DNA from: Dudresnaya verticillata | Lineage: Eukaryota | DNA: 64,000 nt | Direction of reading: 5' to 3' | Assembly (NCBI GenBank): GCA_977862235.1 | Contig: OZ374566.1 | Coordinates: 1 to 64,000 of the forward strand | In this document: piece by piece, positions 6,747 to 43,800 of the stretch | How the letters are laid out: each line of letters opens with the position of its first letter | How positions within the stretch are numbered: position 1 is the stretch's first letter | Translations under genes and position numbers: made by a program | Notes under the pieces: model-generated | Databases searched by the model: none | What the model was told of the DNA's origin: nothing | The model's input: only the letters and a program-made list of their open reading frames with translations

Positions 6747-6775
6747 ACACAACCGCGCTGCTACATTTCGCAGAC

Positions 6776-15589: not shown

Positions 15590-15590
15590 C

Positions 15591-18324: not shown

Positions 18325-21300
18325 TGGCTCACTGCGTCGACGCGGAGCCGGCCACTTCCCCAGACGGGTATGTGTGCCTCTTGTCCTCGGAGATATACCG
18401 CGTGTCTGGGTCGCTAGGCGCTGACCCAGGGGTAATGATACCCCACACCATTGCGGTGGACACCGGCTCCGGTTACAACCTCATCGCGAAGCGGGCGCTG
18501 CCGCCCGGATGGGATCAGCACGCGGCGGTGATGGAGTCGACTCCTCGCCTCGCCGGGGCTGATAAGACCCCACTGAGCCTATCAGGAGTAGCGCACCTCT
18601 CGATGAGGTTGGGGAACACGACGTTCCGCGTGCCATTCATAGTGGCAGACACCTTTGCCGTCGACGTCCTGGTGGGAACGCAGTTCCTCAATGCGCACGT
18701 GCGAGGCATCGACGTCGAATCGAAACGCCTATCGCTCCGACGCGGGGGCTCGGTGCCCCTCCTCAAGCGCAGTAGACCTGCCGAGGACCGCAAGCCGGCA
18801 TCGAAGCCGAAGAACCCGTCAACGGGTTTGTCGAGGAAGCACCAGAGGGAGCTCCTCGACTGGGATCACGACACCCACACCATCCGCCTCTCTAGGCAGA
18901 TGATGCTCCCAGCCTATTCCCAAAGGCTCGTCTCCGTGACGTCAGGAGCAAGTGGACTGATCCACACCGAACCCAAACCCTCGTTGCAGTCCCGCCACGG
19001 CGTGAGACTTACCAACGGGGTGCACGACGTCGAGTCGATGCGACCCTTCGGGGTCATCGTCGTGAACTTCACCGAAAAGCCTCGGACCCTGCCGAAGGGC
19101 ACCGTTGTCGGCTACGCGGTTAGGAACCCGGTGGCGCTGATAACTCCAGACCGCAAAGTCGCGGAGGAGTTTGGGCGGGTGATGAACATCACCACCCTAC
19201 CACCACGGGGGCAGAGGCCCCCGGTAAATCAGGATGCCGTGGAACCATCCACCTCGCCGTCGACGGCAAAGGGCACCGACGCCCAGCCGCTGCAGGGCGC
19301 AGCTACCGCCGCAGCGAAGGCCAACCCGTCCATCGAAGACTGGGAGTCGCAGGTCGATCTCTCGTCTATCGAAGACGAGGTGACCCGCAAGGAGGTCCTC
19401 TCCATGCTCAGGAAGCATCAGTCCATGTGGAACGGGAGGCTGGGCACTATTGCCACCACCAGACACCACATCGACGTGGAACGGGGCACTCGCCCCATCC
19501 GCTCCATGACCTACCGACAGGGCCCTGCCATGCGCAAGCTGGTGCAGGACGAGGTGGATACCATGCTTCGTGCAGGGGTTATCGAACCCGCCACCTCGGA
19601 ATGGGCATCACCAGTAGTCCTCGCGCCCAAGAAGGACGGCACACGTAGGTTTTGCGTGGACTATCGACTTGTCAACACGAAAACACTAAGTGATGCGTAC
19701 CCCCCTCCGAGGATGGACGACTGCATCGACAGTCTAGGCGACGCAGCCGTCTTCTCGACGTTGGACTGCAACGCGGGGTACTGGCAAATCCCTGTCGCAG
19801 AGGCTGACAGGGATAAGACAACGTTCACTTCGTTCTTAGGGACGTTTCGCTACTTGCGAATGCCCTTCGGGCTGAAGAACGCCCCCGCGACTTTCCAGCG
19901 GGCACTGGACATAATCCTCAGCGGAGTCCGATGGCAGTGTTGCCTGATCTATCTAGACGATGTGATCATTTTCTCGCGGTCGATCGCGGAGCACGTTGGT
20001 CATCTGGACCAAGTGCTGACTCTGTTGCACAAGGGAGGAGTATCCCTGAAACTGAAGAAGTGCCACTTCTTTCAGTCTCGCGTTGGCTATCTAGGCCACT
20101 TCATCGAACCGGGGAAGCTACGCATGGCGCAGACGAGCAGCGACGCTTTCCGCCATGCGCAGTTCCCGACCTCCCTGACTAAGGTGAGGTCGTTCCTCGA
20201 CGCGTGCAATGTCTATCGCCGCTTCGTGCGCAACTTCGCGAAGATCGCGCGTCCTCTGACGAACATGACCCGCAAAGACGCGGATGTGGATTTCGACAAT
20301 CCAAGCGCCGACGCGCTCGAGGCATATGAGACGCTCAGAGCGAAGCTCATATCGCCCCCTATCGTACGGCTCCCCAAGACGGGTAGACCCTACGTCCTCG
20401 ATACGGACGCATCGGCTTATCAGCTCGGATGCGCCCTACTGCAGGAACAGGAGGACGGCCAGCTACATCCAGTCGGGTACTGGTCCTACTCGCTCAACTC
20501 GGCGGAGCGCAATTACTCCGCCACTTAGCGTGAGTGCTTCGCAATGGTGTGGTCGATCACAACCCTGCGGCCCTACATCGAAGGCACGCGATTCACGGTT
20601 CGAACCGATCACGATGCGCTTCGATGGCTGATGTCGCTGACCAACTCTTCGGGTCGACTGACCCGGTGGCGCCTGCGGCTCGCGGAATTCGACTTCCAGA
20701 TCGAGTACCGCCCCGGGCGGGTACACCAAGTCCCGGATGCCCTGTCCCGCTTGGTTCGGCGCCAGCGAAAACAGGAGGAGGTTGACGACGACGTCCCTAC
20801 CTTTGACCCCCCGACGATCGACCGCCCGCAAGGGGAGTCCTCGGCTGAGACGCCGGTGGCACGCTCGGGTACAGAACCCGCGGCTCCCGTCTTGGTCATG
20901 ACACGCTCGCGGGCCAATGCATCTACGCGTTCGGCCCCAGCGCAGCCCATCCCGAAGCCAGTCCGGGGAAACAGCACCGGCACCGCGCCCAAGACGGTCG
21001 CGGCAGACGAACCCCCGGACTTGGCCGACGCAGCGGCGTGGGACGACACCGACGACTTCGACCTCTTCGATCTCCTCCGCGTCGACGCGAGAGATGAGCC
21101 ATCGGACTTGACGTCCGTGGCGCCAGTGAAGCTCCCTTCACCTATTTCCGTCGAGGAATTTGTGGACGCGCAGCGGCACGACTCCTGCCAGACCGTACTG
21201 GCCAGGCAGTCCCGTCGACGGGATAGCCATTTTTACGAGGACGGGGATGGGCTTCTATACCGCCATCATCCGGTCATAGCTTCGCTAGACCAGATAGTGG

Positions 21301-22656
21301 TGCCCGAGTCGTTACAGCCTCGGCTGCTCACGCTCGCGCACCACTCCCTCCTCGCGGGCCACCCAGGGCAGAACAAGATGTTCTATTCCCTGCGTGAGAC
21401 CTACTACTGGCCGCATATGGCGGCCAGCATCGCCATGACAGTAAGAAACTGCAGGCACTGTGCCCGTGACCGCATTCGACTGCGAAGACACCTTCATAGA
21501 CTGAAGCTGTTCCCGGGCACCAGGCCGCTGGAATCCGTCGCTATCGACATACTGGGCCCCTTGCCCAAGACCAAGTCTGGTCGCAAATTCCTCGTCGTCA
21601 TGACGGACCGCTTTACTAAGCTGACCAAGTCGCGCCTCTGCGCACCATTACGGCTTACAACGTCGCAGTTGTCTTCTGTGAACAGTGGGTCTTCCACTAC
21701 GGGCCCCCTAGGTCCTTGCTTTCCGATAACGGAAAGCAGTTCACATCGAAGTTCTTCCAAGCCATCTGCCGGTATTTCGGTTTGAACAACGTGTTCACCT
21801 CCGCGTATCATCCCCAGTCGAATGGACAGGCTGAACGCTACAACCGGACCGTCATAGCCATGTTGAGGAACTACGTCAACGATCACCAAAACGATTGGGA
21901 TCGATACGCCTCTGCGTTGATGTATTCCTACAACTGTCACGTGCACCGCTCGACGCGGACGACTCCATTCAGCTTAGTGCTGTCACGGCCTCCGCCGGAA
22001 TTTACTAAGTTCCACTCGGCGGTCGACCGCCCGAAACCTAGTGAGGATGTCCGAACGGACTTCCTCAAGCGGTTAGACACCGCTATGGGCCTGGCTTCGG
22101 CCGCCCTGGCCAAAACGCAGAGGCGTTATAAAAAGGACTTTGACCGACGGGTCCGGAAGGTCAACTCCCGCATCAAGGCCGGGGACTACGTCTTCATCGA
22201 CGCAACAGACGGGGTGACGAAACCACCGAAGTTGAAGAGCCCGGCCATCGGGCCTTATTGCGTGCTGCTCAACGACGAGCGCACGTTTTTATCGACAGAG
22301 ACGGCCTGGTCGAACGCATCGCAGCGGACCGAGCCGTCTTCTGTCCCCCGCCTCTGGGGGAAGATACTGCGCGTCGAAGCGCGTACTTGCCCACCGCCGA
22401 CGATCTCGCGTCCAAGGCCGTCGACGGCCCGCGGTTCGTGGTGGACAAGATGCTTGACCATGGCACGGCCGAAGACGGCACGCTGCTCTTCCAGGTCAAG
22501 TGTACCGGCTACTCTAAGCCGACTTGGGAACCTCGATCCCATTTGCCGGGGGAGATGGTGAGCCAATACTTCCGCGCGCAGAAGCGTCGGAAGGGCTCTT
22601 GGCTCGACGCCCCATCCCCTCCACTGACCCCCTCGGCGGGGGCGCCTCGTGCTTAA
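18325..22656 (+). pseudogene. pol: Gypsy-1 pol: protease, RT, RNase H, integrase, chromodomain; stop at about 20526 and frameshifts
   Basis: VDTGSG, RFCVDYR, YLDD, LDTDAS, GHPG...CRHC, IDILGP, SDNGKQF, AERYNR, FVVDKMLDH...TWEPRSHL. Confidence 0.93.
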
Positions 22657-24037
22657 GGAGGGGGCCCCAGTCATTCTTTGCCTGTTATTGCCCTCATCCA
22701 GGCATCCTTTGCCTTTTCAAGCGACGGGAACACGTGGGGCCTAAGCCCCACGACAAGGGCATGAATTGCGGCTGCCTAAGCCGGCGGCCCAAGCCGAAAG
22801 CACCCCGCCCCAATAGCCAAGGAGCAGGGGTGCTCTGCGAACTGCGCATCGCAGGGACTCTGGACACGACGTCTTTCGAAACTACCGGCTCGACGCCCGG
22901 CAGTAGCGACGTCCCGATACGCGAAAGACAACCCGCACCGTGGGGGGTTGTCTGGCCAACGCCGCCGCGAAGCCGCGCACAGGTGGCGAAGGGAAGGAGG
23001 CCCCCTTCTCCACCGCCATGCGGCAGCCCAGGCAAAAAACGAGCGTCGAAGCTCGACGCGACCCAGCTGGAGAAGCCACTGAGCCATCCCAGCCGAAGCG
23101 CCACCGAGGTCGACGTCAAGTGGCGGCGGCACGCAGATTGGCGAAGGGCAGGCGTCGACGCCCCCTTCGCCAACGCCGCGCCGCAGCCGCGCGTAATCTT
23201 CGGCCAACACCCACCGCCCTGGTGCCTAGCCGGGCGGGGTGCCAACGCGCACAGCCCCCACGTCGATGTGGGGCGCCAGAGCCAAGGAGGCTGGCGTCCG
23301 TCGAGCTTGCACCGCTGCGCTTCGACGCGTGAGCGGCACAACCACCTCGACGATGGGAAGACCGAGGGCACCGCGGCAGACGACCGGCCCCTGCCAAATA
23401 TAGGCGCGCGCTTACCCATATTTGGGACGCGTGCGCCCCACAAGCGCAGAGGCGCAGATTTGTGTTCAGGCTACAGTGTCTACTGTAGCCAAAACACAAA
23501 TAATTGGGAACGCCCAATGGGGTGCGACACCCCCGGGCCTCTGCCCACTCATCCAGGGGCATCGACGCCCCTGGCCGGGGGTTGGCTGCGCAAGCCGCCA
23601 CCACGCTCTTGGCCACTCCCCGGATCGGACCGCTTCGACGCGGTCCCCTCCGGCGCGCGAAGCGTCAAACGCCACTGGGGGCCCCCGCTCCGCGCTGGCG
23701 CTCCGCATCGACGCGGCGTTGCGCGCGCTGGCAGTCCCCTGTGTGGCGTCAACGCCGGCACTGCGGACCGCCACCCGCTTCGACGCGGGTCAGGCACAAT
23801 GGCACCCATGGTGAGGTGGGGCGTCGAAGCCCCACCACCTGCTACAGCGAGCATAGCTCGGACGCAGCCGCGCGGTCGAAGGCGCAGCTGTTGAAAACGC
23901 GTCGACGCGGACCGAAGTCTTCGCCCACCCCTTGCCCTTTAATGAACCAGACACGCAGAGGCGGTCTTAAAACTAGCGAGGCGATCGACCGTCCCTCGAA
24001 CTAGGATGGTTTTACAGCATAAGCCACTACGGCATAA

Positions 24038-26906
24038 CTACTGGGCGGCCTCGCCCCCAGGACCCACGCCGGGAAAGGCGGGCGCAGAGCCCGCTGCCCC
24101 CGGCGCCGCGGGAACATAGCCCTCAACCACAGTTGTGGTTGCCGCTGGCGCCGGTGGAAGACCCCCGGCGGGAAGCGGAGGCGCCGAGCCTCCATACACC
24201 ACTGCGCTCCCACCTATGGGAGCCGCAGGGCGATAAGGGCCCATCGACGGGCCCCTCACTTGCGGAAGAACCACTTGCTGTGGCACGACGCCTGCAGCAC
24301 TGGGCGGCGCGCCTGCGCCGCCCTGAGCGCCTGGGTACATCAGTTGCCCGGCGCCTTGCCAAGGGGCAACCGGGCCAGAAGGGCCCGGAGCGTACGACTG
24401 CATCGGCTGCATCGACGCATACGCCGTCGGGGGCGGCTGGTATTCCTCGGGCAGCCTCTTGCGCACCGGCGCATAAGACATGCGCTGGACTTCCCCGCGG
24501 AGCCTCTGCACCTCGCGGGAAAAGCCGTCCCGCTCGTCGCGGTATCGAACCGCAACGGCATTGGAGGCGTTGACGTCCTCCTGCAGCACCACTGCGCTCG
24601 ATGCCAGGGCCTGCAGGAGCGTGCGTGTCGATACGCCTTGCCCGACGCGCGCCAAGGAGGCCGCGCTGCGGACAGTCGGATCGGCCCAGACTGCCGCACT
24701 CACCGCCTCGTCCAGTGGGTCGACCACTGGAGGGGGTGGGACATAGGCCACCGCCGGCGACCCATACGGGGCCGGCGGGAGCTGGTACACCTCAACGGCA
24801 GCGGCCGGAGGGGCGCGGGCCATCGACGGCTCCGTGGCAGACGGTCCTCCAACTGCCGCAGGGGCGGCGGGCGCACAACGCGCGGAAGCCCTTGGGGGCG
24901 GCGGGATGTACGACTCGGTCTCCGCCGCCATGACGGCCGCGGCTGACCCAGGGTTAGCACCCACGCCACGACGGCGACGTCCGGCGCGCTCAGCGCGGGC
25001 CATGTCGGCCATCGAGGCGAACCCGGAGCGCTCGATGCGCTCCCGTCGGTCGCGCGTGCCCCGATTGCGCTGGATCTTATAGAGGGCCCCTGTCTCTGGC
25101 AAGAAGCCACACACGAACGCGTCGACGCGTGAAGAGAAGTGACGCCTCCGCGTGTGCTTCTCGGTTGCCGCAGCTACTCGGCGGACTGCGCTGAGCAGCT
25201 AGCCGAACCCAAACGACTTGCCATCCGAAGGACGGAGCAAGTCCGGGAAACACGGCCTCTCGCTTGACCAGCCGGTCGCGAGCAAATTGATCAGGCGGTC
25301 GTCGAAGACCCAGCCTGTCCCCTTCGCGAGGAGCTCGCTGCAGTAGCGGCGGCCCACCTCGAAGGCGTACTCATCTGAGCGCCTAGCCAGGAGCTCACGA
25401 CGAGCAGCTACGCGACCGACTGGTGCGTAGTGGAAATACCGGTCTACGGTTATCCACGGGATAGTGAATCCCGATGGCGTCTCACGGTGGGAGTACCACT
25501 CCGCCGATGGCAACCAGGCCGCATCGAGCGCCGGGTGCAACTTGCACCCCTTTGACGGGCGTCCTTCGCCCGGGGCCTTGCACACATCCCAGTCCCGCTC
25601 CCCGAAGCACACCCCAAAGAGGCGGCGCGCAGAGTCGGCATCGGCCAGACGGTGCGCGAGATCCACGGGCTCGTCTACGGGCACCGTGCGCATCTCTGGG
25701 ATGGTGGCAGGCAGGGGCGGGGCCCACTTATCGGCGGGTGTCAGGAAGAGGGCATCGGCTGCCCTGTCCACCCGCCGAAGCTCCTCAAGGGAGGCGACGT
25801 AAGAAACGTCGCAGGGTAACCCCAACGGCGTGAGCCAGACTATGGCGTCCGCTGGGAGGAAAGCGGCATAGGCTGCCGCCCCTCCGTCCAAGCTCGCGTG
25901 GGCCACCCTCAGGAGCCGCCGGACGTCTGCCCGAGGCTCCTGCAGCCCGCGCCACTGATCCAGCGGGATCTGGTGGCGCGGCACCCCCAGGCGAAGACCG
26001 TCTCGGTCGGGGGCGCGTGCGGTCCAGGGGGCGCCTGGCCCATGAGGGGCAGTCCGACTGAGACCGACACCCCAACAAGAGGCACGACGGGCGCAGCGGT
26101 GGACTCACCCACGCCCGCCGGCTCCCCCTCTGCGTTGGCAGACGCCACGGGAGACGGCGTCGGGGCCGTCGACGGCCCCATGCCAGCAGAATCGCGCGGC
26201 ACAAAGGGTGCCGCCGCTGCGGGGACTTTCCCCGATCCGGATGGCGTGGGCGACCTCGACGGACTCAGGTCGAGCACCCTCGCCACCATCGGCACCGCGG
26301 AGCGCGAAGGCTGCTCCGCGGGTGCCCCTCCTCGCGTCGACGCGGGTTGATTGCTGGGAGCCTTAGGCCCTGCGCGAGGTGGGCCAGTCGGCTGAAAGAC
26401 CCGAGCCGCCGCTACTGGGCGCGGGGCGGCAGAGGCCGCCCCACTCGGGTCCTTCACTCTCTTGCCCTGCGGCGCAGGGCAAGGGCCACCGCCTCTGACA
26501 AGACGTCAGCGGCGGGCGTTGGGGTGGGGTTGGCGTCGACGCCACCCGCCCCGGCGGAAGAAGCTGGCGCCGGAGCAGGCCCGGCCTTGCCCAGCGCACC
26601 CGTCGATGGGGGCGCTTCTTCTGGCGCAACCGTCCAAGGTTGCGCCTCTTCTGTAGCGACCATCGAAAGTCGCTCTGCGGTTGGCGCGGCCGTCGAAGGC
26701 CGCGCCTCCCCGCCCGCCGGCGCCTTTGGCACCGGATCGGCAGGCCCACCCCCTACGACTGACTCAGTCGAGGAGGTGGGCTTGGTAACCGGCGTCCCCT
26801 CGCGCGGGGGCGCCGTCCGCGATCGGTTCACGTGACTCCATCGCCGCGTCGACGCTGGCGATGGGGGAGGAGGTTGAGAGCGTCGAAAGCTTGGAGCGTA
26901 TGGCAC
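24038..26906 (-). pseudogene. Gypsy-1 antisense accessory ORF: Pro/Ala-rich N-terminus, unknown globular domain, coiled-coil and Pro-rich C-terminus; fragmented
   Basis: Four consecutive minus-strand ORFs (26454-26906, 25909-26457, 25199-25984, 24038-25114) between pol and the 3' LTR. The globular part aligns by eye with ORF 51942-54674. Confidence 0.6.
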
Positions 26907-27173
26907 TGGTCTACAGGCAGCCGTACGCGTGGGGAGGGAGTGTTGGTGGTCGTGGTGAGCGATGACCAGACCACCCCACCCCTCAGAGCCGCAGAGGCGG
27001 CTCTCTAAATAGCCCGTCGCGGCTCAGCGCGGGCACACCCGACGTGGCATCGACGCCCGTCACCGACGGACGTCCGGGGGGCCGCTGGCCAATCCCGGGC
27101 GCCGTATTGGCCACCCCACAGCGTGCGCGTCGTAACGGTCGCGACCGAGGCGTTCGCGCTTGAGGGGGTGTTG

Positions 27174-28114
27174 TGTGGCATAGCTGTAAGACCAGCTGTG
27201 CCACGCACGCGCAGCTGTAAGACCAGCTGCGCCACGTGTGCACTGCTGTGCGCACGCTGTCAGCCGGTGGCGCCGAAGCCCCGCTGAACTGTAAGGAAGT
27301 GCGCAGTGGCGCGTGCAGCTGTAAGACCAGCTGTGCCACGTGAGCCCTGCTGTGCGCGCGCTGTCAGCCGGTGGCGCCGAAGCCCCGCTGAACTGTAAGG
27401 ACGTGCGCAGTGGCGCCAGCGTGCGCACGCGTACACGTGTGGCACTGAAACTCCCATGTAATTTCTACGTTTATTGTTTTGTAGTGTACCGCACTGTCTA
27501 AGTGTAAGCGGCGGTCGAACGCCCTGCTGTCCTGCGCGCGGCCCGCACGCACTCCGGCGCAGAGCCGTTGAGTGCGTGACACGCGCGCGCGCACTCCGGC
27601 GTCGAGCCGTTGAGTACGTGTGGACCGTTTCGCCCACGCGCGCCCCCGGGTTGCCGTTACCCGTACGCGTCGACGCGTGTTGGGGCGCGCCGGCGCACCT
27701 CCCGGATTGGTGCCGCCGCAGGCCCTTTAGTATATCTAGTAGTCGCCCCTCCAGGCTTCAGTAAACCAGGCAAGCCAGCCTACGCCAGGCTTGCCCTTTC
27801 TGCTTTGGGTTTCTTTCCCAGTCCTTCGCCGTACGGCTTCCCTCTTTCCCTAGCCGTCTAGGCTTTCCTTTTCCTTTCCCTACTGTCGGCTTCGTGCCGC
27901 CCCACGACGGGGACGCAGGTATCCGGCCGCTGCCGCCCGCGTACGGTACGCCCCGTGCGCGCTCAGGCTTCGACGCCGCTGATCCGCGACCGTCGACGGC
28001 GCGCGCGGCCGACACCGCCGCTCTACCACCACAGCTACCACCCTTCGACGGGTCTGGATGCGACTGATAGACCAGCGCAGCTAGACGTCAGTTCGACCTG
28101 ACGTCTATGCCACA
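27174..28114 (+). repeat. Gypsy-1 3' LTR (941 bp)
   Basis: TGTGGCATA...TATGCCACA; differs from the 5' LTR in the number of CTGTAAG-containing subrepeats. Confidence 0.93.
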
Positions 28115-28649
28115 ATATTAATATATACCCCGGGACTCTGAGAAGAATAATGAGACCGAGGAATTTTCCTGTACCGTCGCGGAAGGGGCCGTTCTTGGCC
28201 CAAACGTGATGGGGCGGCCACCCATGGCAAGAAAAAGGCGTGTCCCTCCCGGAAAGGTCGACGACGAACACCGTTACAGTGGCTGACGGGGTGTTCAGAG
28301 CGATTTCCGTGACGGAAGAGTGCCGCATAAGCGGTGGAACCTGGGCAGAGTACGCCGGCTGCGATATTGCGGAAAAACGAGAGTACCGTTTCGGGAAATG
28401 GGTCGCGTCTTCAGCAGGGTACGCGACCCACGCTGGCAAAATCCGTGACGGAGCGGTATGCCCCAGTTTGAGCAACAACGAAATCCCGTAACGGTAGCAG
28501 GCGTCGACAAGACGCAGTTCCCGTAACCGGGTCGCCACATCGCGGGGAGTTGCGATTACCGCAAGCGACAGTAGCTTGTTTTCCGTTACGGTTAGCGGCG
28601 TACCTTGGCTGGGCGTCGCAGTGGCTTTCCCTTAGCGGAGCTCTTGCCT

Positions 28650-31600
28650 TTTTGCTTTCAATAGCGGTAGATGAAGTTCTGCGGCAATTCCTCGGCGGGT
28701 TCGTAGGTATCCTGATCCGGAGGGTAGCCTTACCAGCGGACTTTGTACGTCATCCCAGTAGGTTCGTCGCGGTGACCGACAATCTTGTCGATCACATATT
28801 CCGTATCGGCTTGTAGTGGTTCCGTCGCGGAGGGAGTAGTACCTTCAGAAGGAGATACTACTGTAGTACCTTCTGGATGTGGCACTACTTCTCCGTAGAC
28901 GGTTGATGGCATGACAGGCGGCACTAGTAAGGGTGCCAGCTGAACCGCAACTCCGATCGGAACCTTCGTGATGCGATCGATACTTACGGGAATCAATACC
29001 CCTTCCTTTCGGATTGTGACAACATGTTCTGTTGCGGATTCCACTTCATGAGGCCCCGTGGCTCTCGGAAGGAGTTTCTTCATTTCCTGAGCCACCTCGC
29101 CCACATCATCCGGTTTGCCTTCCAATCGGTCCCGTTCACGGCGTTCGGCAGGCCGCAAGTTATGGGGCGGCCTGTCGACATAGACTTGATCTCCGTTACG
29201 GATTATGGGCCTAAAGCGCACCTTACGGTCAAACAGTGCCTTGGCTTTTTGCTGAGCCACTGTTTGCTTCGTGCGCGCTGTTTGGAGCGCATACCGTAAA
29301 TGGCGCATGGTGCTCCGCTTCTGTAGCACCGGGGTCATACCCCCTTCCGTAACGGTTTCTTGATGCTCGACAGGAGCCCCTCGTACAACAATGTCCGATG
29401 GGTGGTGTGTCAGCACCAAATCAAATGGCGTTGTTTCCGTAATACGGTGTACCTGCATGTTGTACGCATATGTCAACGGTTGCAGGTACAGATCCCAATC
29501 GGAGTGATGATCCTCAACGTAATGGCGCAAACGCTGAGCGATTGTCTTATTAAATCGCTCAGCTTGCCCATTTGTCTGCGGATGGTAGGCAGCGGTGAGC
29601 AGGTGCCTGACTCCAGTAAGGAACACACCGTATCGAAGAACTTAGCAGTAAACTGCGGTCCGTTATCGGTTAGGACAAATTGGGGTGCGCCGTAGGCGTA
29701 CACCCCAAAGTCCAGAAAGGCGTTAGCCACCACAACGGCTGTTGTTGTCCGTAACGGAATACAGCGCGTCAGCTTAGAGAACCGATCGGTTATTACCAAA
29801 ACGTAGACATGACCCCGTTTTGTCTTCGGAAGTGGCCCGAGAATGTCTATAGCGACAAACTCCAAAGGTCCGCTAGCGGGGAAGAGTTTCATAAACCTTT
29901 GATTCCGAAAGCGGGTTCCCTTTGTCTTCTCGCAGGAGCGACATGTCCGAACGGATTCAAATACATCGTTGGCCATATGAGGCCAATAATAATCCTGTCG
30001 GAGTGTGTAATACATCTTAATTCCGCCTGGGTGACCCGACATCAGGGTGTAGTGGGATAAATACAATACCCGTCCACGGAGTTCGCTTGGTACCACCTTC
30101 TGCAGAGCACCATCCAATTGGGACGTGCGCACCAAGAATCCGTTACGGTCATAGTCAAACTGGGATCCAGGGGAGCCTACCGTATCGGCTTTGAGACGAC
30201 AGAAAGGGTCTCTGGCTTGCCCTTCGAGGAACTCCTCCCTGGTAATTGTCTCATCCTTGACGTCGGATTCTTGGATTACAGTAAACCGTGACGGTATTGC
30301 GTCGGGCTTGTCGGGGGAGGCGGATGCACTCCCACTGGCGGGCTCCACGGCGCATATTACGTTATTTTCCGTAGCGGTTTCTTGTGATGTGGCCCAATCG
30401 GTTAAATATACTCCATGCTCATATAACCCGTCGACGGTGTTTTCGGCGACAAAGCAAGGTATTTCTTCATCCAAAGGTCTATCGTCACCGCCATCCGTTC
30501 GGAGTCGCGACATCCCATCGGCGAGTTGATGCTTAATTCCAGGACGGTATTGCACCTCGAATTCAAATTCCGATAGGCGGAGCCTCCACCTGGCTAGGCG
30601 GCCAGATGAGCCTGCGAGGTTCAGGATCCACCGCAGGGTATCGTGATCCGTTCGGAGAATAAACTTATCACCGTAAAGGTAGGGTCGGAGTGTTAACATG
30701 CTCCAGACCACGGCTAGGCATTCCTTTTCGGTTGTCGTATAGTTTTTCTCCGCATCGGTGAGGCTTCGGCTCTAGTATCCAATAGGGAGGTGATCGCCAT
30801 TCGGTTGTTCCTGCAGAAGTACACAGCCAACTTGGTGGTCACATGCGTCAGTGTCCAACGTATATTTATTTCCGTGACGGGGTAGAGCCAATATAGGTGA
30901 AGAGATAAAGCGTCTCTTCAGTTCCTCGAAGGCTTCATATTCCGTATCGGATAATATTCCAAACTCAAAGGGTGAGCCCTTGCCGGTTTTCTTATTTAGC
31001 GGTGCTGAAATCCGAGCGAAGTTGGGTACAAAGCGACGATACACGTTGCACATTCCCAAGAAGGATCGCAATTCCGTCTGGTTAGTCGGCGGCTTCGCGA
31101 CCTTAACGGATTGGATATTCCGATTATCCACTTCTAATTTTCCGGGACGGATAACATGCCCTAGGTATTGTACAGACGCGTTGAAGAAGTCACACTTTGA
31201 AAATTTCAACGTTACCCCAGCAGATCGTAAAAGCGTAAGGACTTCCTTCAGGTGGTGGAAATGTTCCGTAACGGTTTTTGAGTAGACAATTACGTCGTCT
31301 AGGTAGACGAGGGCAAATTGCCATTTAACCGTAGAAAGGATTATATCCACTGCCCGTTGGAAGGTTGCCGGTGCATTTTTCAATCCGAATGGCATTCTCC
31401 GAAAACGGTATACGCCAAAATGGCTAGTAAAGGTAGTTTTGTCCCTTTCCTCTTCCGGAATCTCGACTTGCCAATATCCGCTATTGCAATCCAGGGTGGT
31501 AAATACAGTAGCTTCCCCAAGGGAATCTATGCCCTCATCCATCCTGGGTAAGGGCTATGAGTCCCTAACCGTTACTGAATTGAGCCTTCTATAGTCAGCA

Positions 31601-32852
31601 CAGAACCGCATGGTGCCGTCCTTTTTTGGAACGAAAACCACGGGGCTGGCCCACTCCGATGAGGCTGGTTCAATTACCTTAGCGGAAAGCATGCGATCGA
31701 TCTCTGTCTTTTCGATATCTCGCTGCTTATGTCCGGCACGGCATGGAGCTTGATATACTGGCTTCGCTCCGGGAGTTAACTCGATGCGGTGCTTGGCAGC
31801 TGTAATGTTGCCAAGATCGCCACTCCACATCGATTTATATTCCTCGAGTAGGGTTAAAATCCGTTTGCGGAGCGATGCTTCTTCTGTGCCGATCTGGACT
31901 TGATCCTTCCAGTCGGTAGTATTTGTATTTTCCGTTACGGGGCTGCTTACTTCCTTGTCGTGGGGGGAGATACTGCTGGCCTTTTCGGAGGTAGGGTTAG
32001 AATTAAATGATTGAATAATTCCTCCCCCTCCTTAAATGGAGGTATACCGTTGACGGTAAAAATAGCAGAAGGGGCAGCAGTAGCGAGGCCCACGACAGTA
32101 TATTTGGGCGACCGTACCGGCTTGTTAGAAACATTAGAGACCCAGATCCGAAACGGTTTGTTAGGTACAATATCCATAATACCATTAGCCATTAACGTGA
32201 GGTGCTTAAAAGCCGGCTTAGGATGATTTTGTAGAAAGCATAACCCACCCGTGGGGGTATTAACCGTTACGGTGGTTTGCGTCATAGGGGGAATAAGGGT
32301 AGATTTGGCTAAACGAATTTTCTGAGAAACCGTAGCGGCAGAAAGAGGTGAGGGCTGTAGGGTGGCAGTGGGTCCCGTCTTCGGAATTTTGGCTTGACCA
32401 ACAAGGGATACCGGTGGGTAATGATGAAAAACAACTTTCCGTAACGGAGGGAGGATTGCCTTCACGTAGATGAAGGTAATTCCCAAAATACAGGGAGCCG
32501 CCAAGTTCGCGACCACTAGAAAATGGACGCGAGCACGGAGCTCTCCGATACGGACGAAAAGTTGGATCTGACCAAGAGGGCGTATAGCGCGATTAGACGC
32601 ATCCCATAATGGAGGACTGGTTGCTGGGCGTATGAGTGGGAGCCATTGGCGCGGAAGGCGCCTGGCACTAATGAGATTGGGCCCAGCGCCAGAGTCCAAG
32701 ACGGAGATTAAAGGAAGCATCACGCTATCTGTCCGTCCCACGGTAATTTGCATCTTGTAATTTTGATGTTGCATAAAGAAGACAGTATCATTAGTCTGAT
32801 AAGCCAATGGGAGTTCCGTAACGGTATCTCGCCGATCCCCTGGCGGGTCCAC
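28650..32852 (-). pseudogene. pol: Gypsy-2 pol (PR, RT, RH, IN, chromodomain) with several stops and frameshifts
   Basis: LDSGAG, RFCADYR, YLDD, LDTDAC, GHPG...CRSC, TDNGPQF, AERFNK, EYVIDKIVGH...YKVRW. Confidence 0.93.
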
Positions 32853-32896
32853 ACTCGCGAGAGGTGGAAAGCCGTGAGGCGGGGATGGCGGCGCCC

Positions 32897-35376
32897 TTAC
32901 GCATCCCCCCTTGAGTTTTCCGAATTCAAGGTTGCACCAGTCGGATCCGCCTCCATGGGCTCGCGCAATTCTGCGATTTCCACTCCGTCATGGTCCTCCA
33001 CCGATAGTATCGGGGCATTCCGTTGCGGAGGGGGCGTATGCGGCTTGCCCCGATTCCCTTGCGGATTCGAACTGGTTCCTACTACGAACCTGCGACCTAC
33101 AGGGTAGTGCTTCTGGAAGTTGCGCTCTCGCTCTTCCACAAGCCTAACCCGATCGGAGTCATGTATCCATGGGCAGACAACGTGCTCTGGCGAAAGGCAG
33201 ATGCGACAGTTACCACTTCCGTAAAGGCGTCGGACCCGAGGATCCGACTCATCCCGTAGCGGAGGAGCTGGTTGCTGCTGTCCTCGCCCATCGTGGGCAT
33301 TATTTCCGTGACGGTGACTCGGCTGCTGTTGGGGGCCAGGAGCCGGGCGAGATCCACCATAGGGGGGACCTTGCCTGCGTGGCATCCTGGGCGGAGTAGG
33401 GTGGACGCTTTGCGGGGGCGAGGAGTACGGGGTAGAAAAGGTAAACCCCGTGCTCGTACCCGTAGCGGCACCGTGGCCTCCCTCGACGGCTAGCACCTGA
33501 TTATCCGTAGCGGAAAGATTCCCTTGCGACTCATAGTGTACATCCGATACGGAATCCAGCGACAACACCTTAGACGGGCGCGCTTTAGTGCGCCCATCAA
33601 AGATGTGAGCCGGAACGGTTTGGCGTTGAGCTACCCGATGGGACTGACCCAGACCAGTCGCATAGCGAGTGATGGCCTGATAATCCAACTGGGAATGCGT
33701 CGCCAGATAATTTCTCATCTGTTGACGAGTACCCGGTAGGAGTCCTTCAACGAACAGTGACTTCAATGCCCGATCGGAAAATACTGTACCGCAACGGAGA
33801 GCCTTGGCCCAGAGCTGGTTCGAGAACTGCTCTTCCGTCATGGTGGATGTTTGCCTGAAGTTGCTGACATCCGTATAGGCTTCAGCAATCACTTCATCCG
33901 TAGCGTAGGTTCTCAATAAAAGTTCACCACCTCGGAATATGTGCGGAGCATCTCGGCCTGCTCCACGTCAACCGCCATGGTACCTCCAGCAAGCCTAGCC
34001 TGTAGAAGGGCTTCGGCCTGTCCTTTAAGGAAAAACTGGAAGCACCAGACGGCAACCCCTTCGGCGATGCCGTTGATGTTACAACCGTCACGGAATTTAG
34101 CGAGAAATCCCAAGACGGTAATAGGGTCCGTCCCATCGAATGTATGGGAGGACATCTGGACGTCGAGTTTCTTCCGTATACGGCTCATGTTTTGTGAGAA
34201 CTTAGAGCCGTATGTCTTACTCCTCTTATCCAATCGGTAGGTGCGGTAGTCCAGCGCCTTGACAAACTTGTCATGTAGCGGCCGGATTACCTTCACCTTT
34301 CCGGATTTGGCACCGTGTTTTCTGGCCCGGTGCCTATTCTCTCTATCCGTTACGGAAGAACTCTCTGAGTCTGAATCCGTAGAGATAGAGGAGTCATGCC
34401 TTTTTTCGCGTTTCCGCGATCTTCTGTTTCTCCTCTTACGGCGGCGGTGTTGGCTATCCTCTGAGCTGCTCTCATTGGATTCCATACCGGATTGGTGGTG
34501 TCGTCGCTGGGTGTGGTCGCCCATGTGCGACCGACGGGGAGGGTCAGAGCGGGAGTGTCGGGCATCTCGTTTATGCCGACCTCGACCGGTCCTCCGACTC
34601 GGATGGGGTGAGCTGGACGCATCGCTGAGATGGTCGCTGCCTCCACCTGATCGAACCGGAACGGTATAGCGCTCTTGCTGATAGCGCCCTGGCGTAGGCA
34701 CATCTACGTGTCCAGGAGAATACCGTAACGGTGGCTGAGTGTTTGTTGGTCCCGTAGGGGCTTGTTGATGTTGAGAATCCGTTACCGGAGCCGGTGGCAG
34801 TGGCCCAGAGGGTACTGTGCCCGGCGGAAATCCCATAACGGGGGGTTGTTGCGGCTGCTGCGTTCTTCCCTCGACCGGGAATTCATTCCATAACGGTGGT
34901 TGCTCAGTGAAAGCTTCCGTAGCGGGAGGCCTTGCCATGCCGGGAGCAATCTGGCTCTCGAGCTCGGCGGCCACCTTTTCCTGTAGGATCAAAGCTTGCA
35001 CTATCCGAGGAAGGTGCTGCTCCAGATAGGAATTAACCAAAGACGGAACCGTTTCCGAGAGGGATATCTCCACCTCTTTTACCATTCCAGGTTGTACTTC
35101 CAATCGGAGATGCTCTAACACCCTGAGAAGGACCTCCGACAGGACCCAGTGGACCCGATGGGATTACGGCTTGGGTTGCGGAGCTGCCTTCTTCGAGGCG
35201 TCTGATCCGACACGGGAACGGGGAGCTTTACCAGCAGCACCCTTTAGGATGTCTTCTGGGTTCTCCACTCCGGAACGGATTTCACCTCCTTCACTGCGTA
35301 GACTGCGCGCAGTGGGGGTAGTGTCACCCGCTTTAGGTCCCGTAACGGGAGGGTCTGCGTGTTCTTCGTTCTGCAT
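32897..35376 (-). pseudogene. gag: Gypsy-2 gag, frameshifted
   Basis: DYRTYRLD, FDGTDPITVLGFL, degenerate knuckle CRICLSPEHVVC. Confidence 0.82.
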
Positions 35377-35501
35377 GATACCTTAACGGAACACAACGGT
35401 TGTTCTTGCTTGTCTATCCAATATTCCGTAACGGGTTGTCGGTACAGCCGAATTCCTACTGTAGCGGATTTCGACGGCTGTTTCTGCCAACCGTGACGGT
35501 G

Positions 35502-35519
35502 TTCTAGGTCGGGAGACCA
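35502..35519 (-). promoter_or_regulatory. Gypsy-2 primer-binding site TGGTCTCCCGACCTAGAA
   Basis: Reverse complement lies 5 nt inside the LTR boundary; identical to the Gypsy-1 PBS. Confidence 0.8.
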
Positions 35520-35524
35520 AAAGA

Positions 35525-36199
35525 TGTGGTGTAGTGAAAACCCACGAACTCCGAGACGGACAGCTGGCCTGACTTTCCTTAACGGACGAGAGCAACACTA
35601 CCTCCACGGGGTGGTAGAGCAGTTCGCACCGAGACGGGAGAACAGCGAGCGGCTAACCGAGACGGATATTGGGAAGCAACAGACAAGGGGGTGGTACAAG
35701 TGCCGGGACGGACTCCGTAACGGTGGTGGTGGTAGACCGCAACGGGCCCGGCGCGGGGAAAACCGTAAAGGATTGGGCTAAGGTTGCTTACCCGTTTACC
35801 TTAGGAGCCGCTGCGGTGCCGCCCTGATATACAAGTCAGGGTGGCACCGAGCGGTCCGGTCCGTGGGGGCCAGACCCTAGTGGTCTGGTCCTATGGTGGA
35901 ATCGGCCCTGCTGGTCCCAATCTCCGACACGGACATGCGCAGCATTCTCATTGGCTGGCGCGCTACTCTACACACTTTGCACAGACTCACTAAAAATAAA
36001 GAATAAATACTACAAATACTCCGATATGGTTGGTGCGCTTCACTGTTGTACAGCAATGCGTACCGGCGTACAGCAATGCGTACGACATCCGACACGGTTA
36101 CACGTTGCCAGATCATCAGCGTGGCGTATTGCCACATCACCCGTTACGGTTGGCTCGCCGTCGGCGTGCCGCGTGCGCGCCACGGCTCACTTCACCACA
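35525..36199 (-). repeat. Gypsy-2 5' LTR (675 bp)
   Basis: TGTGGTGTAG...CTTCACCACA imperfect terminal inverted repeat adjacent to the PBS. Confidence 0.75.
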
Positions 36200-36802
36200 G
36201 GTTTTAGGAGTCGCCCAAAGTACTCGCACTCGCACGTTGATTAAATGTTGTGGGGACGGGGACGGTACTGTAAGGCATTTTGTGCTGGTGGGACAGGTCT
36301 TCATTACAGTACTGGACGCTGCATCGAACCCAGTAGTGACGATAGATCTCGCGCGACAACAAAACTGTTACGTAGTGCGGCACAGCCTTGACTGGGTCAG
36401 GTGCGCTTTACAAATAATCCCGCGTTTCCGAAGCAGTCCCATACCCATACGTTACCGCACATGACAAATGACTCTATGTCTCTTGTCCCTAACACGGTCT
36501 TCCCGCTAATCATCACACTACTGAAATTGATCTCCACATCCCTAGGGAGGAACGAGAGTCGCAGGAGCAAGGAAGGGATATAGACAGCGCTGATGGACCC
36601 AGTGCTCCCGGATTGGGAACTGAAGGTGGCGGAAAGGGTGTGAATAGAGCGATGTCGGGAGACCTGGCTGGAGCCGTACTCCCACGTGCACGCAGACAAA
36701 GCTTCAAGGACAGGAGGAGGTGAATGAAGGGGAAGAGAGACATGGTTCGAAGGGGAATGGGCAAGGTGAGAGCAAAGGTGGGGAAGTGGGAGTGCCGGGG
36801 GG

Positions 36803-37990
36803 TTGGACGGCAAGGGGCATGGTCTCCGACCGAATGGGCGCGATTTTTCTGAGATGAGTCGAGAAGAGATGGCTGATCTGTTCAGGAAGTGTCTGGTGGC
36901 CATCTCGGAATGGGATGAGAGAAAGAAGGCTTACGAGGACGAAACGCGGCACACCGAGAAGAAGGAAAGCGATAATATTGGAGGATTGGGTGATCAACTC
37001 ACGTCAGATGCAGCACGTGGCCGCTCTGATAAGGATAAAAGTACAGTCGGAGCTCGCAAAGCGGAGCGTGAGGCTTCAATTGCACGGCGTATACAGGAAT
37101 GCCTTGCGCACGCTGTTCGGGACCGTGATGCCGAGTTCAAAAGCGAAGAACAAAAGCTGGCAATGGAAGTTGTATTGCGCAAAGAGAGTGATGCATTAAT
37201 TGTGCTGAGGACAGGAGGTGGGAAAACCGCGGTGGTTTTCGGGTCCGCTCTAACTGAACAAGGAGTGACTATTTATATATGCCCCCTTCGATCACTACGG
37301 GAGGAGATCAAGGTGCGATGTGATGATATCAGGCTGCCCGTTGTGGATATTGAAGACTTGGACAACAACGAAGTTGAGAAGCGCTTGATGCCGAGAGGTA
37401 TAATCCTTGCATCTCCTGAGAGCGTGTCCTGTCGAAAGTATAATTCGGTGCTGAGGAAACTGTACGGAGAAGGGAAGTTGATGCGTGTTGTTGTTGACAA
37501 GGCTTACATCGTTGTTTTCAGTGCCCACTATCGCGACTGTATGTTACGTATGCGGCATGCAAGGCTGGATGGTGTCCAGGTACCGATCATTATGATGACG
37601 GCCACTGCGCCGCCACATTTGGAGAACCGTATTATAGCTTGAAACGGAGCTGAGGTCGGGAATACGAAGTTGATTCGTGGCAGCCTCCGCCGGGACAACG
37701 TAATTTATACAGTGGAACGGCTTGCGAAAACAACTGAAGAGGAGGTGGGGCACTGTATCAGACATGTTGTCTTCCATGCCGTGAGTGAAGCATTTATTGT
37801 GCGTGGTGGCGGGAAAGTTCTTGTTAGTGTTCTTACGAAGGGCGAGGCTGATCAAGTGCATACACTTCTCGAGCGGAGAAGAATATTCTCGAAAACATGG
37901 CATATTATAGTCTGCAAGTACCATAGTGGGATGAGTGATGAAGCACGGCGGAACAGTGTTGCCAAATGGGGCCGAAACGGGGCCCTATAG
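36803..37990 (+). pseudogene. RecQ-family SF2 helicase, telomere-linked-helicase-like; inactivated and truncated
   Basis: FKSEEQ (motif 0), LRTGGGKT (Walker A), ICPLRSL (Ia), SPES (Ib), VVVDKAY (mutated DEAH), MTATAPP (III). In-frame stop at 37640; cut after YHSGMS by a repeat at 37983. Confidence 0.85.
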
Positions 37991-40245: not shown

Positions 40246-40780
40246 AGGTGCAGACCACGGGTGACTGGAAAATGGCTGAGTCGTGCGGTACTTCCAACGT
40301 TACAACTGGAAGTACCGCTCCCATTGCGGAGTTCGGACGCGGCACTACGAGGTCAGTTTTGATTTCAGCAATAATTTTCCCCGTTCCCAGGCATTTAAAT
40401 TGAATGCTGAAAATTACCACAGAAATTAGTCGTCTCTATGTGCCAGAAACACTACTTCAGACCAAACATATTACCTACATATGGCAATACCTGTTTTGAT
40501 TCGTGGACCGTTCCTTTCCGTGATGGAGATCACGAGCTTTCACTGGATCCAGTTACTAATTTACGTTGTGTTAGCACGATTCGAGGGTGGCCAGACTCTC
40601 CACACTGCCGCACACCCGCGGACGGGCACGCGGCAGCTGCCGCGTGCCAGTTACGTGCCCGCTACCATCGACGAGCGTCTCAACCCCTATCGGGGATTCA
40701 TCGCCCCCCGTATTGTACCACTCTGCTCAACCTGGCCACCGCGCGCGAAGAGCGGACATGCGCGCGGTGGCCCGCTTAAG

Positions 40781-40970
40781 CGACGAGTGTCAAATCGCTC
40801 CCGGTTGGGCCTCCATCACACTATCTCGCCAACTTCACCCACGCGGGCGTGCCTACGCTTCTCCCCACTCTACGAGCGACGACGAGCGTCACATCGCCCC
40901 CGGTTGGGCCTACATCACACTATCTAGCCAACTTCACCCATGCGGGCGTGCCTACGCTTCGCCCCACTCG
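40781..40970. repeat. 2 x ~99-bp duplication
   Basis: CGACGAG.GTCA.ATCGC.CCCGGTTGGGCCT.CATCACACTATCT at 40781 and 40880. Confidence 0.85.
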
Positions 40971-41129
40971 GCGAGCGGCACAGCATCTATATAGATGCTG
41001 TGCAGTTCGCGGGCGCGCGTATATATACAAGATTGTACTGAAGTATATATTCGCGCGCGCGAACTGCCAAAGTCGCTCCCGTGCTCTTTGGCAAACCGAG
41101 TACTATTTCGGCGCTTTAGTTAGTCTTTA

Positions 41130-42995
41130 CTAATCATCCGGTAAACGATCGTTCCCTCGACTGAAGCGCAGCGCTACTTTCTCCAGTACATCTTCGTTCG
41201 CTAAATGCGCAAGCTCCCCGCAGAGTTGCTTTCCGCGAGCCTGTACAAAGGGTAGACTGAAGTCCAGGGTTCCAAGGTTGGACGTTTCTCGAGAGAGACG
41301 GTTGGACCACATCTTTGTGCTCAGCTTCGTCGTTCGACGCCAAGTGAGAACAATTTGTTGGAAACAGTGACTTTCTGCTTCGTGGGGATCGTGTATAAAT
41401 GCTTCCCTCTGCGTAAGTTTCAAGCGACTGTGAAACCTACCATCCACGACGTTGAACTTTCTTGTTCTTCGCGTCAGTACTACTGTAGGCCCCACCTTTT
41501 GATGACAGCAAGACTCCGTGGATCCACTCCCGTGACTCTTCGGACAGAAGACGGCGCTGTGTCCCATAAACAGATGAGCAGGAGCTTCATCATTCTCTTC
41601 ATCAAAGACGTATCCGCCGAGAATACGGAGAAGATCTTAATTCACTCCTGACCCACACTTTCGCATCATATCCATTCTGTCGGTTACACCAGGTATGTCA
41701 AGGTGCGTGCACAGATCGTCGAACGACGCGAAAACTATATGAAAGCGGGGACAGTCTTGCGCTGGAGATTGTGTGTGGCTGAAGCCCGGATAGAAGAAAA
41801 CCCTGTCCCTTGTTCGGACATCGGCTCGTATACATCGCGCGATGCTTTCAAACTCACCCAGTCCGCAGTCGGCAGTTGTTCGCATAACGAAGGAAGATAG
41901 TTTGTCCTTCCGAGGAACCAAGGTGATACCATCCATTCCCTGGCGCTTGCTCCTATCTTGAGTCATGTGCACAGTTGTCTTCAGTGCCGCTTGCAACCGT
42001 ACAGCTAGACGTGTTCGCAGGCATGACATGACTCGCTCGAGGCATTGTCGGTCACGGTTGGGACGGTCTCCCTCTTCCAGCCTAGAAAGCCTACGTTCGA
42101 AGAAACTTTTGTAGCGGAGTAGCTCTACTCTTACTTCTGCGTAGTTGTCACGGAGCCGTTGTATTTCCTCCATGCAGTTGCAAATATGACCTGTAGTAGA
42201 TGTTCTCAGGCGTTTAGAAACTGGCTCCCTCCACTCCCCGTCTTCATCCGATTCTTTTTCATTCTGACGATCGTCTCTAGCTGCAAAACGCCAAGATAGT
42301 TTCGGGTTTCCATTGCTTTCATCTCTGGAATTATCCAGGTCATTCGAAACGTCTTCACCTTGAGGAGCCTCGTCGTGACACGATAGCAGATACCCTGGGT
42401 AGAACAAAACTTTGTCGACCTACGCAGGGTAGTCATTTTCGGGAAGATAGTGGATTACTCCAGTGCCCAGTGCGCCTCCCTGTCCGAGAAGTGGCTCCAC
42501 AAGTAGGAGATCCGCTGTGCACCACACATCAGGGCATTCTGGATAGTGGTCCATTGTCCATAGGACCTGTATCAATGAAGCTCGTGACGGCAAGCCCGCT
42601 CGCGACCTCGTAATTCGCCCACCCCCCATGAGATGCAGAAAATACCTTGAGGTGTCGTTGACGTCCAATTCTACGCGAAGCTCTTCTAGACCCTTGAAGT
42701 TCGAATTCTTTCCAGTGGCCGGCAAAGTTCCGCCTGTTCGTTTCCACACGAACCACGGGCTCTCATACTTAAATCTGTTGTGGGAAGATAAGTCAGGCCT
42801 GACGCTCGTCAAAGAAGAGTCCGACAGCACTCTAGTCGTGCGACTACAGCCACCGTAGCCGCGGGAAAGGCGAGTTGTTCTGCTACGTGCGCTCAGAGAT
42901 AATGCGCTACAGTACACGTAAAAGGACCGGCCAGGGAAGGGAACAGAGTTTCCAGAGGTCTTAGAATGCACAGAAGACCGATGGACTGCATACAC
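41130..42995 (-). pseudogene. Unknown protein, fragmented (probable transposon accessory gene)
   Basis: Consecutive minus-strand ORFs 42420-42995, 41637-42407 and 41130-41567; coiled-coil segment MEEIQRLRDNY...LSRLE. Confidence 0.45.
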
Positions 42996-43800
42996 CCTTG
43001 CACATAAATCATCGCCGCTGCGATTGGTTGCATTAATGATACTGATGTATACTTCTATATATGTGGCGCCACGACTACCGTTCTATGAGCTCGTTCTTAG
43101 GTTCTGGCCCAGTCATTACCTCAATTTCTCCGATGCAGCAAGGATATGATTTGCACGCAATGCATTTCTCGTGTAGTAGGTGTAAGTATTAGTTATCTTG
43201 CTCAAAAACAGTCCTCAATAGCTCTTGCCTGGGCTCATACTGTGATGGACGTCCATAGTTGAAGATATCGTTGAGCGCAATTGATGCTCTCCAGACTGCT
43301 GACGCGCGTCGCTGCGCCGTTTACCTGTTCGTCTTGAAATGGGCGGGAACTTCTAACCATGCGAATCATGCTGTTCACAGCGTCTGTCTACTCAAGTGCG
43401 TGTGGCTCATCGCACTATCGAAACCAGAACAATGTTTGCCGCGAAAAAAGGCTGCCGCCGATGCTCAGCGCAGCATGTTGGCAATACTGCCAGTCAATAC
43501 CGCGTGTTACGAAGTTGTGGGGCCACATTCTATTCTTTGCACTGAACATATGTTGTTTAAGTGAGCAAACAACAGCTTCCTCCGCAATACGAGACGATCT
43601 TTTTCGCGCGAAATAATAGCTCATGTTGCCACCGAAACGATAACAGGATAGTCTGTGGTGACGTGGGAATCCCACGTTGGCGTTGTGTAGAAGACATACC
43701 ATCATCAACCGCAAAAAGGACATTGATCGAGGAATCTTGAAGCCGGTCTGGCCGCATCTACCTCCGAGTATAAATTCCCACTTTTGTTAACCAACCCCTC

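Follow-up and report, generated by a model that had tools for sequence, protein, structure and literature searches.

Motif Accumulation in Transposable Elements

Among the closest described counterparts of the element reported here is the VANDAL/VANC system of Arabidopsis, in which Mutator-like DNA transposons accumulate, as tandem repeats, the motifs bound by their VANC anti-silencing proteins; as described in the passages concerned, these motifs are asymmetric and lie outside coding DNA (PMC5735166). We analyzed 64,000 nucleotides of Dudresnaya verticillata DNA (contig OZ374566.1, positions 1–64,000; hereafter the window) that include Gypsy-2, a decayed, 3′-truncated chromodomain Ty3/Gypsy retrotransposon on the minus strand (28115–36199) containing 59 copies of the spaced palindrome CCG-N3-CGG, 24 of which read CCGTNACGG. 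Like VANDAL elements, Gypsy-2 bears a short family-specific motif that differs between related families, and it has kin with accessory genes. Unlike VANC motifs, the Gypsy-2 motif is a spaced palindrome, is dispersed, and lies mostly within gag and pol of a retrotransposon. Additionally, no accessory gene was detected in Gypsy-2, the accessory family of its relatives has no Pfam match, and no homology to VANC was shown. An earlier note on this DNA had proposed the VANDAL analogy, which holds for the accumulation of a family-specific motif but fails for the non-coding, tandem and asymmetric character of VANC motifs (PMC5735166). The likeness lies in the motif pattern; protein binding and an anti-silencing effect are only proposed for Gypsy-2.

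Other systems share individual features with this locus. The Plavaka elements of red algae possess mobile accessory genes, PAG1-3, with proposed binding to tandem inverted-repeat arrays beside PAG3 (bioRxiv 10.1101/2025.02.11.637652). As far as the relevant sections describe them, these elements likely come from the same host group, have accessory genes shared among transposon families and a proposed self-binding, and measure 17–19 kb, like a ~17 kb neighbor of Gypsy-2 in the window. In contrast, their proposed targets are tandem inverted-repeat arrays, and saturation of coding DNA throughout an element is not described in the sections concerned. Enlarged CACTA elements have also been noted in Chondrus, in the part of the literature concerned (PMC6431247). 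The HIP1 word of cyanobacteria is likewise a single hyper-abundant, dispersed palindrome found inside open reading frames (ORFs) as well as between them and in all reading frames (PMC4390886). However, the portions of the HIP1 studies that bear on this point describe it as genome-wide, contiguous and tied to host methylases (PMC4390886, PMC5861425), whereas the Gypsy-2 motif belongs to one element and is gapped and graded. Zinc-cluster (Zn2Cys6) proteins read the same half-site in the same orientation with one preferred spacer, the examples given in the pertinent section being Leu3 (CCG-N4-CGG) and Pdr3 (CCGCGG, N0) (PMC10954478). Gypsy-2 likewise has one preferred spacer (59 copies at spacer 3, ~5 expected) but differs in the spacer itself, in its dozens of sites in coding DNA, and in that no zinc-cluster protein was found in the element. 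Finally, plant Gypsy elements of the Retand/Tat group contain an antisense TRP28 ORF, with a possible DNA-binding role, between pol and the 3′ long terminal repeat (LTR), and so resemble the present elements in having a long region with an antisense gene between pol and the 3′ LTR (PMC11963269). These are angiosperm elements without a chromodomain, TRP28 does not match the antisense family of red algae, and the passages concerned mention no body-wide motif.

Family-specific spaced palindromes running through transposon coding DNA were not found described in the literature searched, which mostly excluded subscription papers. The saturation of Gypsy-2 is real and is not ordinary; it is a variant of transposon self-marking whose mechanism is only proposed. 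Transposon silencing in red seaweeds is, in the account available from the Plavaka study, largely unexplored (bioRxiv 10.1101/2025.02.11.637652), and family-by-family escape from silencing has been worked out mainly for VANDAL/VANC. The motifs of each family therefore matter as exact, testable probes for a reader protein, and they point to a 9-bp DNA word under selection so strong that it has biased amino-acid choice in gag and pol. Looking for spaced palindromes by synonymous shuffling is also a simple screen for such systems, applicable to any transposon library. If the reader is encoded by the elements, it would represent a new class of sequence-specific chromatin-opening protein.

A Graded Palindrome Saturates Gypsy-2

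All 24 copies of CCGTNACGG in the window lie within 28307–36149, at exactly the 24 coordinates listed by the earlier note, and its observation that the word occurs nowhere else in the window is likewise correct (0 exact copies in the remaining 56 kb). Across 100 dinucleotide shuffles of the window the word averaged 1.24 copies with a maximum of 5, and 0/100 reached 24. The excess also persists under the Markov control, with expectations in Gypsy-2 of 0.16–0.26 copies at orders 0–2, 1.0 at order 3 and 3.0 at order 4. At order 5 the expectation rises to 11.9, leaving only a 2-fold excess, because a model of that order already contains most of CCGTNACGG.

The 24 copies represent the top end of a motif that is graded and specific in its spacing, CCG-N3-CGG. 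This broader unit occurs 59 times in 28115–36200 against ~5.3 expected, ~10 times chance, and CCG-Nx-CGG words with spacers of 0, 1, 2, 3, 4 and 5 number 0, 3, 8, 59, 15 and 4 (~5.3 expected for each). The surrounding CC-N5-GG core is also enriched in coding DNA (110 vs. 43.5). The favored inner bases, T and A, are both present in 24 of the 59 sites, one is present in 31 and neither in 4, which matches independent half-sites. Outside the core A/T is favored, a G before and a C after are avoided, and the top-scoring form of the site is W-CCGTNACGG-W. Near-matches that differ at inner positions are enriched in a graded series (13, 11, 7, 6 and 4 copies, against 0.3–1.0 for each), while near-matches lacking one outer base are rarer than expected (5 vs. 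16 and 4 vs. 15).

The motif extends through every part of the one Gypsy-2 copy examined. Two exact copies lie in the 5′ LTR (35525–36199, minus strand, as are all Gypsy-2 features below), which is bounded by TG...CA, has a short inverted repeat at its termini and contains 11 CCG-N3-CGG sites. Two more, at 35426 and 35491, lie in the leader between LTR and gag (35377–35524), 16 in gag and pol, and four in the non-coding tail after pol (28115–28657; six CCG-N3-CGG), which is cut off by the right LTR of the neighboring element, Gypsy-1. Gag (32900–35376) and pol (28658–32987) contain 17 and 23 CCG-N3-CGG sites, so that 40 of the 59 are coding and 19 non-coding, where ~1 would be expected. The LTR is the part richest in sites (16 per kb), followed by the leader (14), tail (11), gag (6.9) and pol (5.4). 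The earlier description of copies in LTR, untranslated and coding DNA is thus borne out for the 5′ LTR, leader and gag/pol, and is extended in that the real unit is the broader CCG-N3-CGG. Sites are separated by a mean gap of 137 bp, with an evenness marginally above random (p = 0.053) and no helical or nucleosome periodicity in Gypsy-2 (R ≤ 0.16). They were also said to be dispersed rather than tandem, and they are: the sites spread through the whole element, the sequences flanking the copies are unrelated to one another, and none of the three tandem-repeat rows in 27–37 kb overlaps any site. Enrichment stops at the borders of the element, with 0 CCG-N3-CGG both in the 700 bp past the Gypsy-2 LTR and in the LTR of Gypsy-1 that abuts the other end.

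The structure of Gypsy-2 shows its family and its decay. A likely primer-binding site (35502–35519) shares an 18-nt identity with the Gypsy-1 site at 15591–15608, behind the left LTR of that element. Gag, broken by one in-frame stop and one frame change, has a weak Retrotrans_gag match (E = 0.067) and 25–38% identity to the gag of relatives. Pol, broken by in-frame stops and frame changes, comprises a likely protease region, reverse transcriptase (RT), RNase H, integrase and chromodomain (Pfam RVT_1, RT_RNaseH, Integrase_H2C2, rve), in the RT–RNase H–integrase order of Ty3/Gypsy. The chromodomain after the integrase matches PF00385 (Chromo) at E = 2.9e-12 when a stop is read as X. Altogether the element has four in-frame stops and several frame changes. 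Self-BLAST found no second LTR for Gypsy-2 in the window, so the 3′ LTR of a complete element is absent, only the 5′ LTR and primer-binding site being present, and no target-site duplication was identified. At 540 bp past pol, Gypsy-2 meets the right LTR of Gypsy-1 at 28114. The flanks of the Gypsy-1 LTRs do not match as a target-site duplication, which suggests that the 3′ end of Gypsy-2 was lost by recombination. Of 393 protein matches 120 were listed, and those of them that bear a name come from the red algae Chondrus crispus and Agarophyton chilense; together with the telomere repeat of the window, described below, they make a red alga the probable host. Viral contigs contained no relative of the Gypsy-2 RT.

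The Motif's Probable Effect on Codons and Amino Acids

The 6,441 coding nucleotides of Gypsy-2 gag and pol, analyzed piece by piece, contain 16 exact copies and 40 CCG-N3-CGG sites. In 2,000 synonymous shuffles the corresponding means were 1.04 (maximum 5) and 5.65 (maximum 14). The stricter control, in which protein, codons and all dinucleotide counts are kept (n = 1,000), gave 1.65 exact copies (maximum 6) and 7.9 CCG-N3-CGG (maximum 17), and the enrichment survives it. The RT–RNase H–integrase core alone has 10 CCG-N3-CGG against 2.1 in dinucleotide-preserving shuffles. All three codon phases are used, by 20, 11 and 9 of the coding sites.

For comparison, 91 related loci were used. They comprise 11 from contigs of metagenome-assembled genomes (MAGs) and the best 80 of 547 metagenome matches, and include many near-copies. 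Peptide contexts that permit CCGTNACGG use it in 15 of 20 cases in Gypsy-2 and in 11 of 138 in the related loci; contexts permitting CCG-N3-CGG use it in 37 of 64 and 250 of 1,623 cases, respectively. The permitting peptides are themselves over-represented (20 vs. 4.8, maximum 13 in 1,000 residue shuffles), and at the RT site at 31266 none of 87 aligned homologues has residues permitting CCGTNACGG. Together these observations suggest that the motif has biased the amino-acid choice of gag and pol, and not codons alone.

Neighboring Elements Carry Motifs of Their Own

No enrichment of the motif was seen in the host-like gene of the window (ORF 61729–63999, 0 CCG-N3-CGG), in other transposon ORFs of the window, or in any of the 85 of 91 related loci that have at least 1,200 coding bases (0/85). 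The two loci nearest to Gypsy-2 in a quick RT tree have 0 CCG-N3-CGG in 3,396 bases.

Two neighbors of Gypsy-2 have motifs of their own. Gypsy-1 (14722–28114, plus strand; LTRs 14722–15589 and 27174–28114, 95% identical) has no CCG-N3-CGG enrichment and instead accumulates CGTCGA-N-G (57 vs. 6.0), with CGTCGA also enriched in its coding DNA (30 vs. 11.5). A Plavaka-like DNA transposon region of ~17 kb (40400–57800, ends approximate; weak Pfam Plavaka match, E = 0.014) contains W-CG-N2-CG-W 74 times against 19.5 (maximum 29 in 100 simulations), and TCG-N2-CGA 11 times against 1.4 in its coding DNA. The three motifs show no cross-enrichment, and no comparable motif was found in the hAT, recombinase-like, helicase or host-like ORFs of the window. 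A 46-bp tandem array at 56751–57407 within the Plavaka-like region also contains W-CG-N2-CG-W. Comparison of the Plavaka-like transposase with five MAGs gave no match.

A further motif was found in another host. Two Gypsy contigs, L001 and L002, which are 73% identical and have open gag and pol, each contain 25 copies of CTC-N6-GAG. Between them 10 of 18 alignable sites are kept, compared with 48% of synonymous third positions. Among 15 contigs from the same MAG, two clade members have weaker CTC-N6-GAG enrichment (15 vs. 4.4 and 8 vs. 2.5) and 11 have none. One further related locus has a marginal palindrome (p = 8e-6), and in one clade of relatives GAC-N5-GTC reaches 37 vs. 8 when pooled, but with 4–7 copies in most elements, which are near-copies. 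Two distant relatives, L009 and L010, contain 10 and 9 copies of CCGGCGAA against 0.2 in whole contigs, with no enrichment in pol coding DNA. The bacterial MAG G001 contains at least 14 eukaryotic-type retrotransposon contigs, likely contamination from a host alga, and similar contigs occur in G002–G004.

An Accessory Protein Family as Candidate Reader

Many Gypsy relatives of Gypsy-2 have a long antisense ORF after pol, and these ORFs form one family, with 335 representatives at E ≤ 0.001 and members in 29 of the 91 related loci. Ten of its clusters were looked up, and the one that is named is from Pyropia. Members include L002 7213–10233 (−), L115 10134–12692 (−) and L113 3–2447 (+). The Plavaka-like region encodes a protein with profile homology to these Gypsy antisense proteins (51936–54674, plus strand): profiles built without window proteins found it at E ~1e-5 among 913 six-frame ORFs with 3/3 seeds, the next match having E ≥ 0.22, and a deeper profile, not fully independent, gave E = 4e-21. 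The family thus links the Gypsy clade with a motif-saturated DNA transposon. As a sole query in a homologue search, ORF 51936 retrieved nothing and the L002 accessory core two proteins; the ESM Atlas gave no usable match for that core or for a Gypsy-1 antisense ORF.

The domain is predicted to be mostly helical (AlphaFold pLDDT 69 and 56), and a coiled coil plus a basic tail are appended in several members. We regard the family as a candidate reader of the motifs, a lead rather than an identification, and it may already be listed in the red-algal Plavaka study (bioRxiv 10.1101/2025.02.11.637652). At 28115–28490 on the plus strand, the Gypsy-2 tail has an A/T-rich box, after which come short frames that include the basic stretch RKRR. 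An antisense gene might have left these frames behind; they match neither the related loci nor the accessory family, and a six-frame search of the tail against the related loci returned nothing at E < 0.1.

Competing Explanations for the Motif

Binding of a protein to DNA at these sites, whether the protein is encoded by the element or by the host, is the probable basis of the motif. Two-fold symmetry, a fixed spacer and independent half-sites fit a dimeric DNA-binding protein. The explanation we favor, tentatively and at a little under even confidence, is that Gypsy-2 has been filled, through selection among copies, with binding sites of a dimer that is likely specific to the family, probably encoded by the element, and would keep the body of the element expressible. 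The sites would be bound as double-stranded DNA, and would have accumulated by selection among copies rather than by biased repair. The protein might derive from an antisense accessory gene region since lost from this copy, and it could counter host silencing along the body, so that chromatin over the entire element stays permissive for expression. Such an action along the body would explain why sites recur every ~140 bp and not only at the promoter. The earlier note had likewise inferred a family-specific site for a dimeric protein; the family restriction, symmetry and fixed spacer agree with it, whereas the binder and its anti-silencing effect are only proposals. A broader version is doubtful at present: Gypsy and Plavaka-like families of red algae may each encode a mobile accessory protein of undescribed fold and rewrite their whole body with its palindrome as an anti-silencing barcode of the family, even within genes and at the expense of free amino-acid choice.

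Several observations weigh against the favored explanation. No binding protein was identified, CCG-Nx-CGG is also a classic Zn2Cys6 transcription-factor site, and a single copy of Gypsy-2 was examined. No accessory gene was detected in that copy, the best tail match having E = 1. DNA binding by the accessory family is unsupported, since the family has no Pfam or PDB-sequence match and Foldseek, run on its domain models against PDB and viral libraries, matched nothing at E ≤ 0.001. Carriage of the gene and possession of a motif also fail to coincide: the 29 accessory-carrying loci mostly lack a strong motif, L113 has the gene and no CTC-N6-GAG, and Gypsy-1 has a motif, yet its two antisense ORF pieces after pol (24038–26104) fall outside the accessory family and belong to no detectable one. 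Between L001 and L002, CTC..GAG words with other spacers are kept in 10/35 and 10/24 cases, and the spacer-specific excess is therefore modest. Moreover, the innermost arm bases of CTC-N6-GAG covary in these two contigs (18/25 and 14/25; p = 0.0002 and 0.0012).

That covariation, with a hairpin probability of ~0.5, would suit a signal in RNA or cDNA, either dispersed Gag packaging hairpins or cDNA sites bound by integrase or by an accessory protein, as would the spread of sites over the whole transcript. The covariation in L001/L002 involves all four pair types, unlike the situation in Gypsy-2, where 0/7 symmetric position pairs covary, the hairpin probability of the core is 0.21 sense and 0.20 antisense, and a hairpin fold is seen at 11/59 sites in the sense strand and at 10 in the antisense strand, in a strand-symmetric profile. 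The features of RNA-packaging hairpins, covarying stems and strand-specific loops, are absent from Gypsy-2. The absence of covariation and the equal folding of both strands favor a protein with two-fold symmetry that recognizes double-stranded DNA. A scan for Rfam families gave no match, and the adjoining DNA transposon region, which has no RNA genome to package, is saturated in a like manner. With neither a hairpin nor a tandem signature in the sequence, a dimer binding double-stranded DNA fits best, and we consider an RNA or cDNA signal improbable. Only slightly less improbable is a HIP1-like drive, in which a sequence-specific methylase or repair bias turns near-matches into full sites without any function being required. 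Such a model has been proposed for HIP1 (PMC4390886), in the portion of that work concerned, and the section on PAG2 describes a putative adenine methylase accessory gene in red-algal transposons (bioRxiv 10.1101/2025.02.11.637652). It would account for the depletion of near-matches lacking an outer base, but selection at these same contexts in the codons would leave that depletion too. The graded enrichment of inner near-matches and the soft A/T flanks resemble an affinity profile and not the all-or-none site of an enzyme; the drive would have to be restricted to one family, and HIP1 itself appears to owe its persistence to selection, on the evidence presented in the relevant part of a later study (PMC5861425).

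A host-encoded dimeric factor or chromatin opener, such as a Zn2Cys6-like reader of everted CGG repeats with a different factor for each family, deserves more weight, although we consider it unlikely. The geometry of CCG-Nx-CGG with specificity set by the spacer matches the everted repeats of zinc-cluster proteins as the excerpted account presents them (PMC10954478), the spacer-4 form CCG-N4-CGG is enriched too (13 vs. 4.3), site density peaks in the LTR, and no element-encoded binder was found. However, three adjacent elements would each need a different factor, the single host-like ORF examined has no site, and the 40 coding sites come at a cost in amino-acid choice. A scan of 28 window ORFs found no Zn_clus match. 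Origins in codon bias, a repeat within the protein, expansion in tandem or faulty assembly can be dismissed with near certainty. The 2-fold excess at Markov order 5 is all that speaks for them, and there the motif is absorbed by the model; they are refuted by the use of all three codon phases, the survival of enrichment under codon- and dinucleotide-preserving shuffles, the unrelated flanks with no tandem array over the sites, and the excess of non-coding sites.

Protection from CpG decay was also considered as a cause and is ruled out by the lack of CpG depletion in the window, where observed/expected CpG is 0.90–1.16 across nine segments and depleted in none. In the motif the CpG's G can be replaced (10 near-matches, 0.7 expected), which is not so for the outer C (0, 1.0 expected). 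The two CpGs, which the earlier note had stressed, do not look central to the motif, and a role for CpG methylation is unsupported.

Other Features of the Window

A scan for tRNAs gave no match. Just beyond the Gypsy-2 LTR lies a DEAD/DEAH helicase fragment (36770–37642, plus strand) that we take to be RecQ-like. Pieces of a hAT transposase (9150–11574) have clusters of ATGCCC on both sides (11 per 2-kb bin; 8001–14000), which are likely subterminal binding repeats. ORFs at 6725–8716 (plus strand) have an H-x-D...H pattern reminiscent of a 2-oxoglutarate oxygenase and no Pfam match. With the tandem repeats alongside (5807–6514), these ORFs resemble the PAG3 arrangement of red-algal transposons. 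A tyrosine-recombinase-like ORF with a weak Phage_integrase match (2697–4988, minus strand; E = 0.013) is possibly a Crypton-type element near the telomere. Positions 1–700 are telomeric, an array of the 8-bp unit (AAACCCCT)n that comes close to the repeat of Bostrychia; the window is thus subtelomeric.

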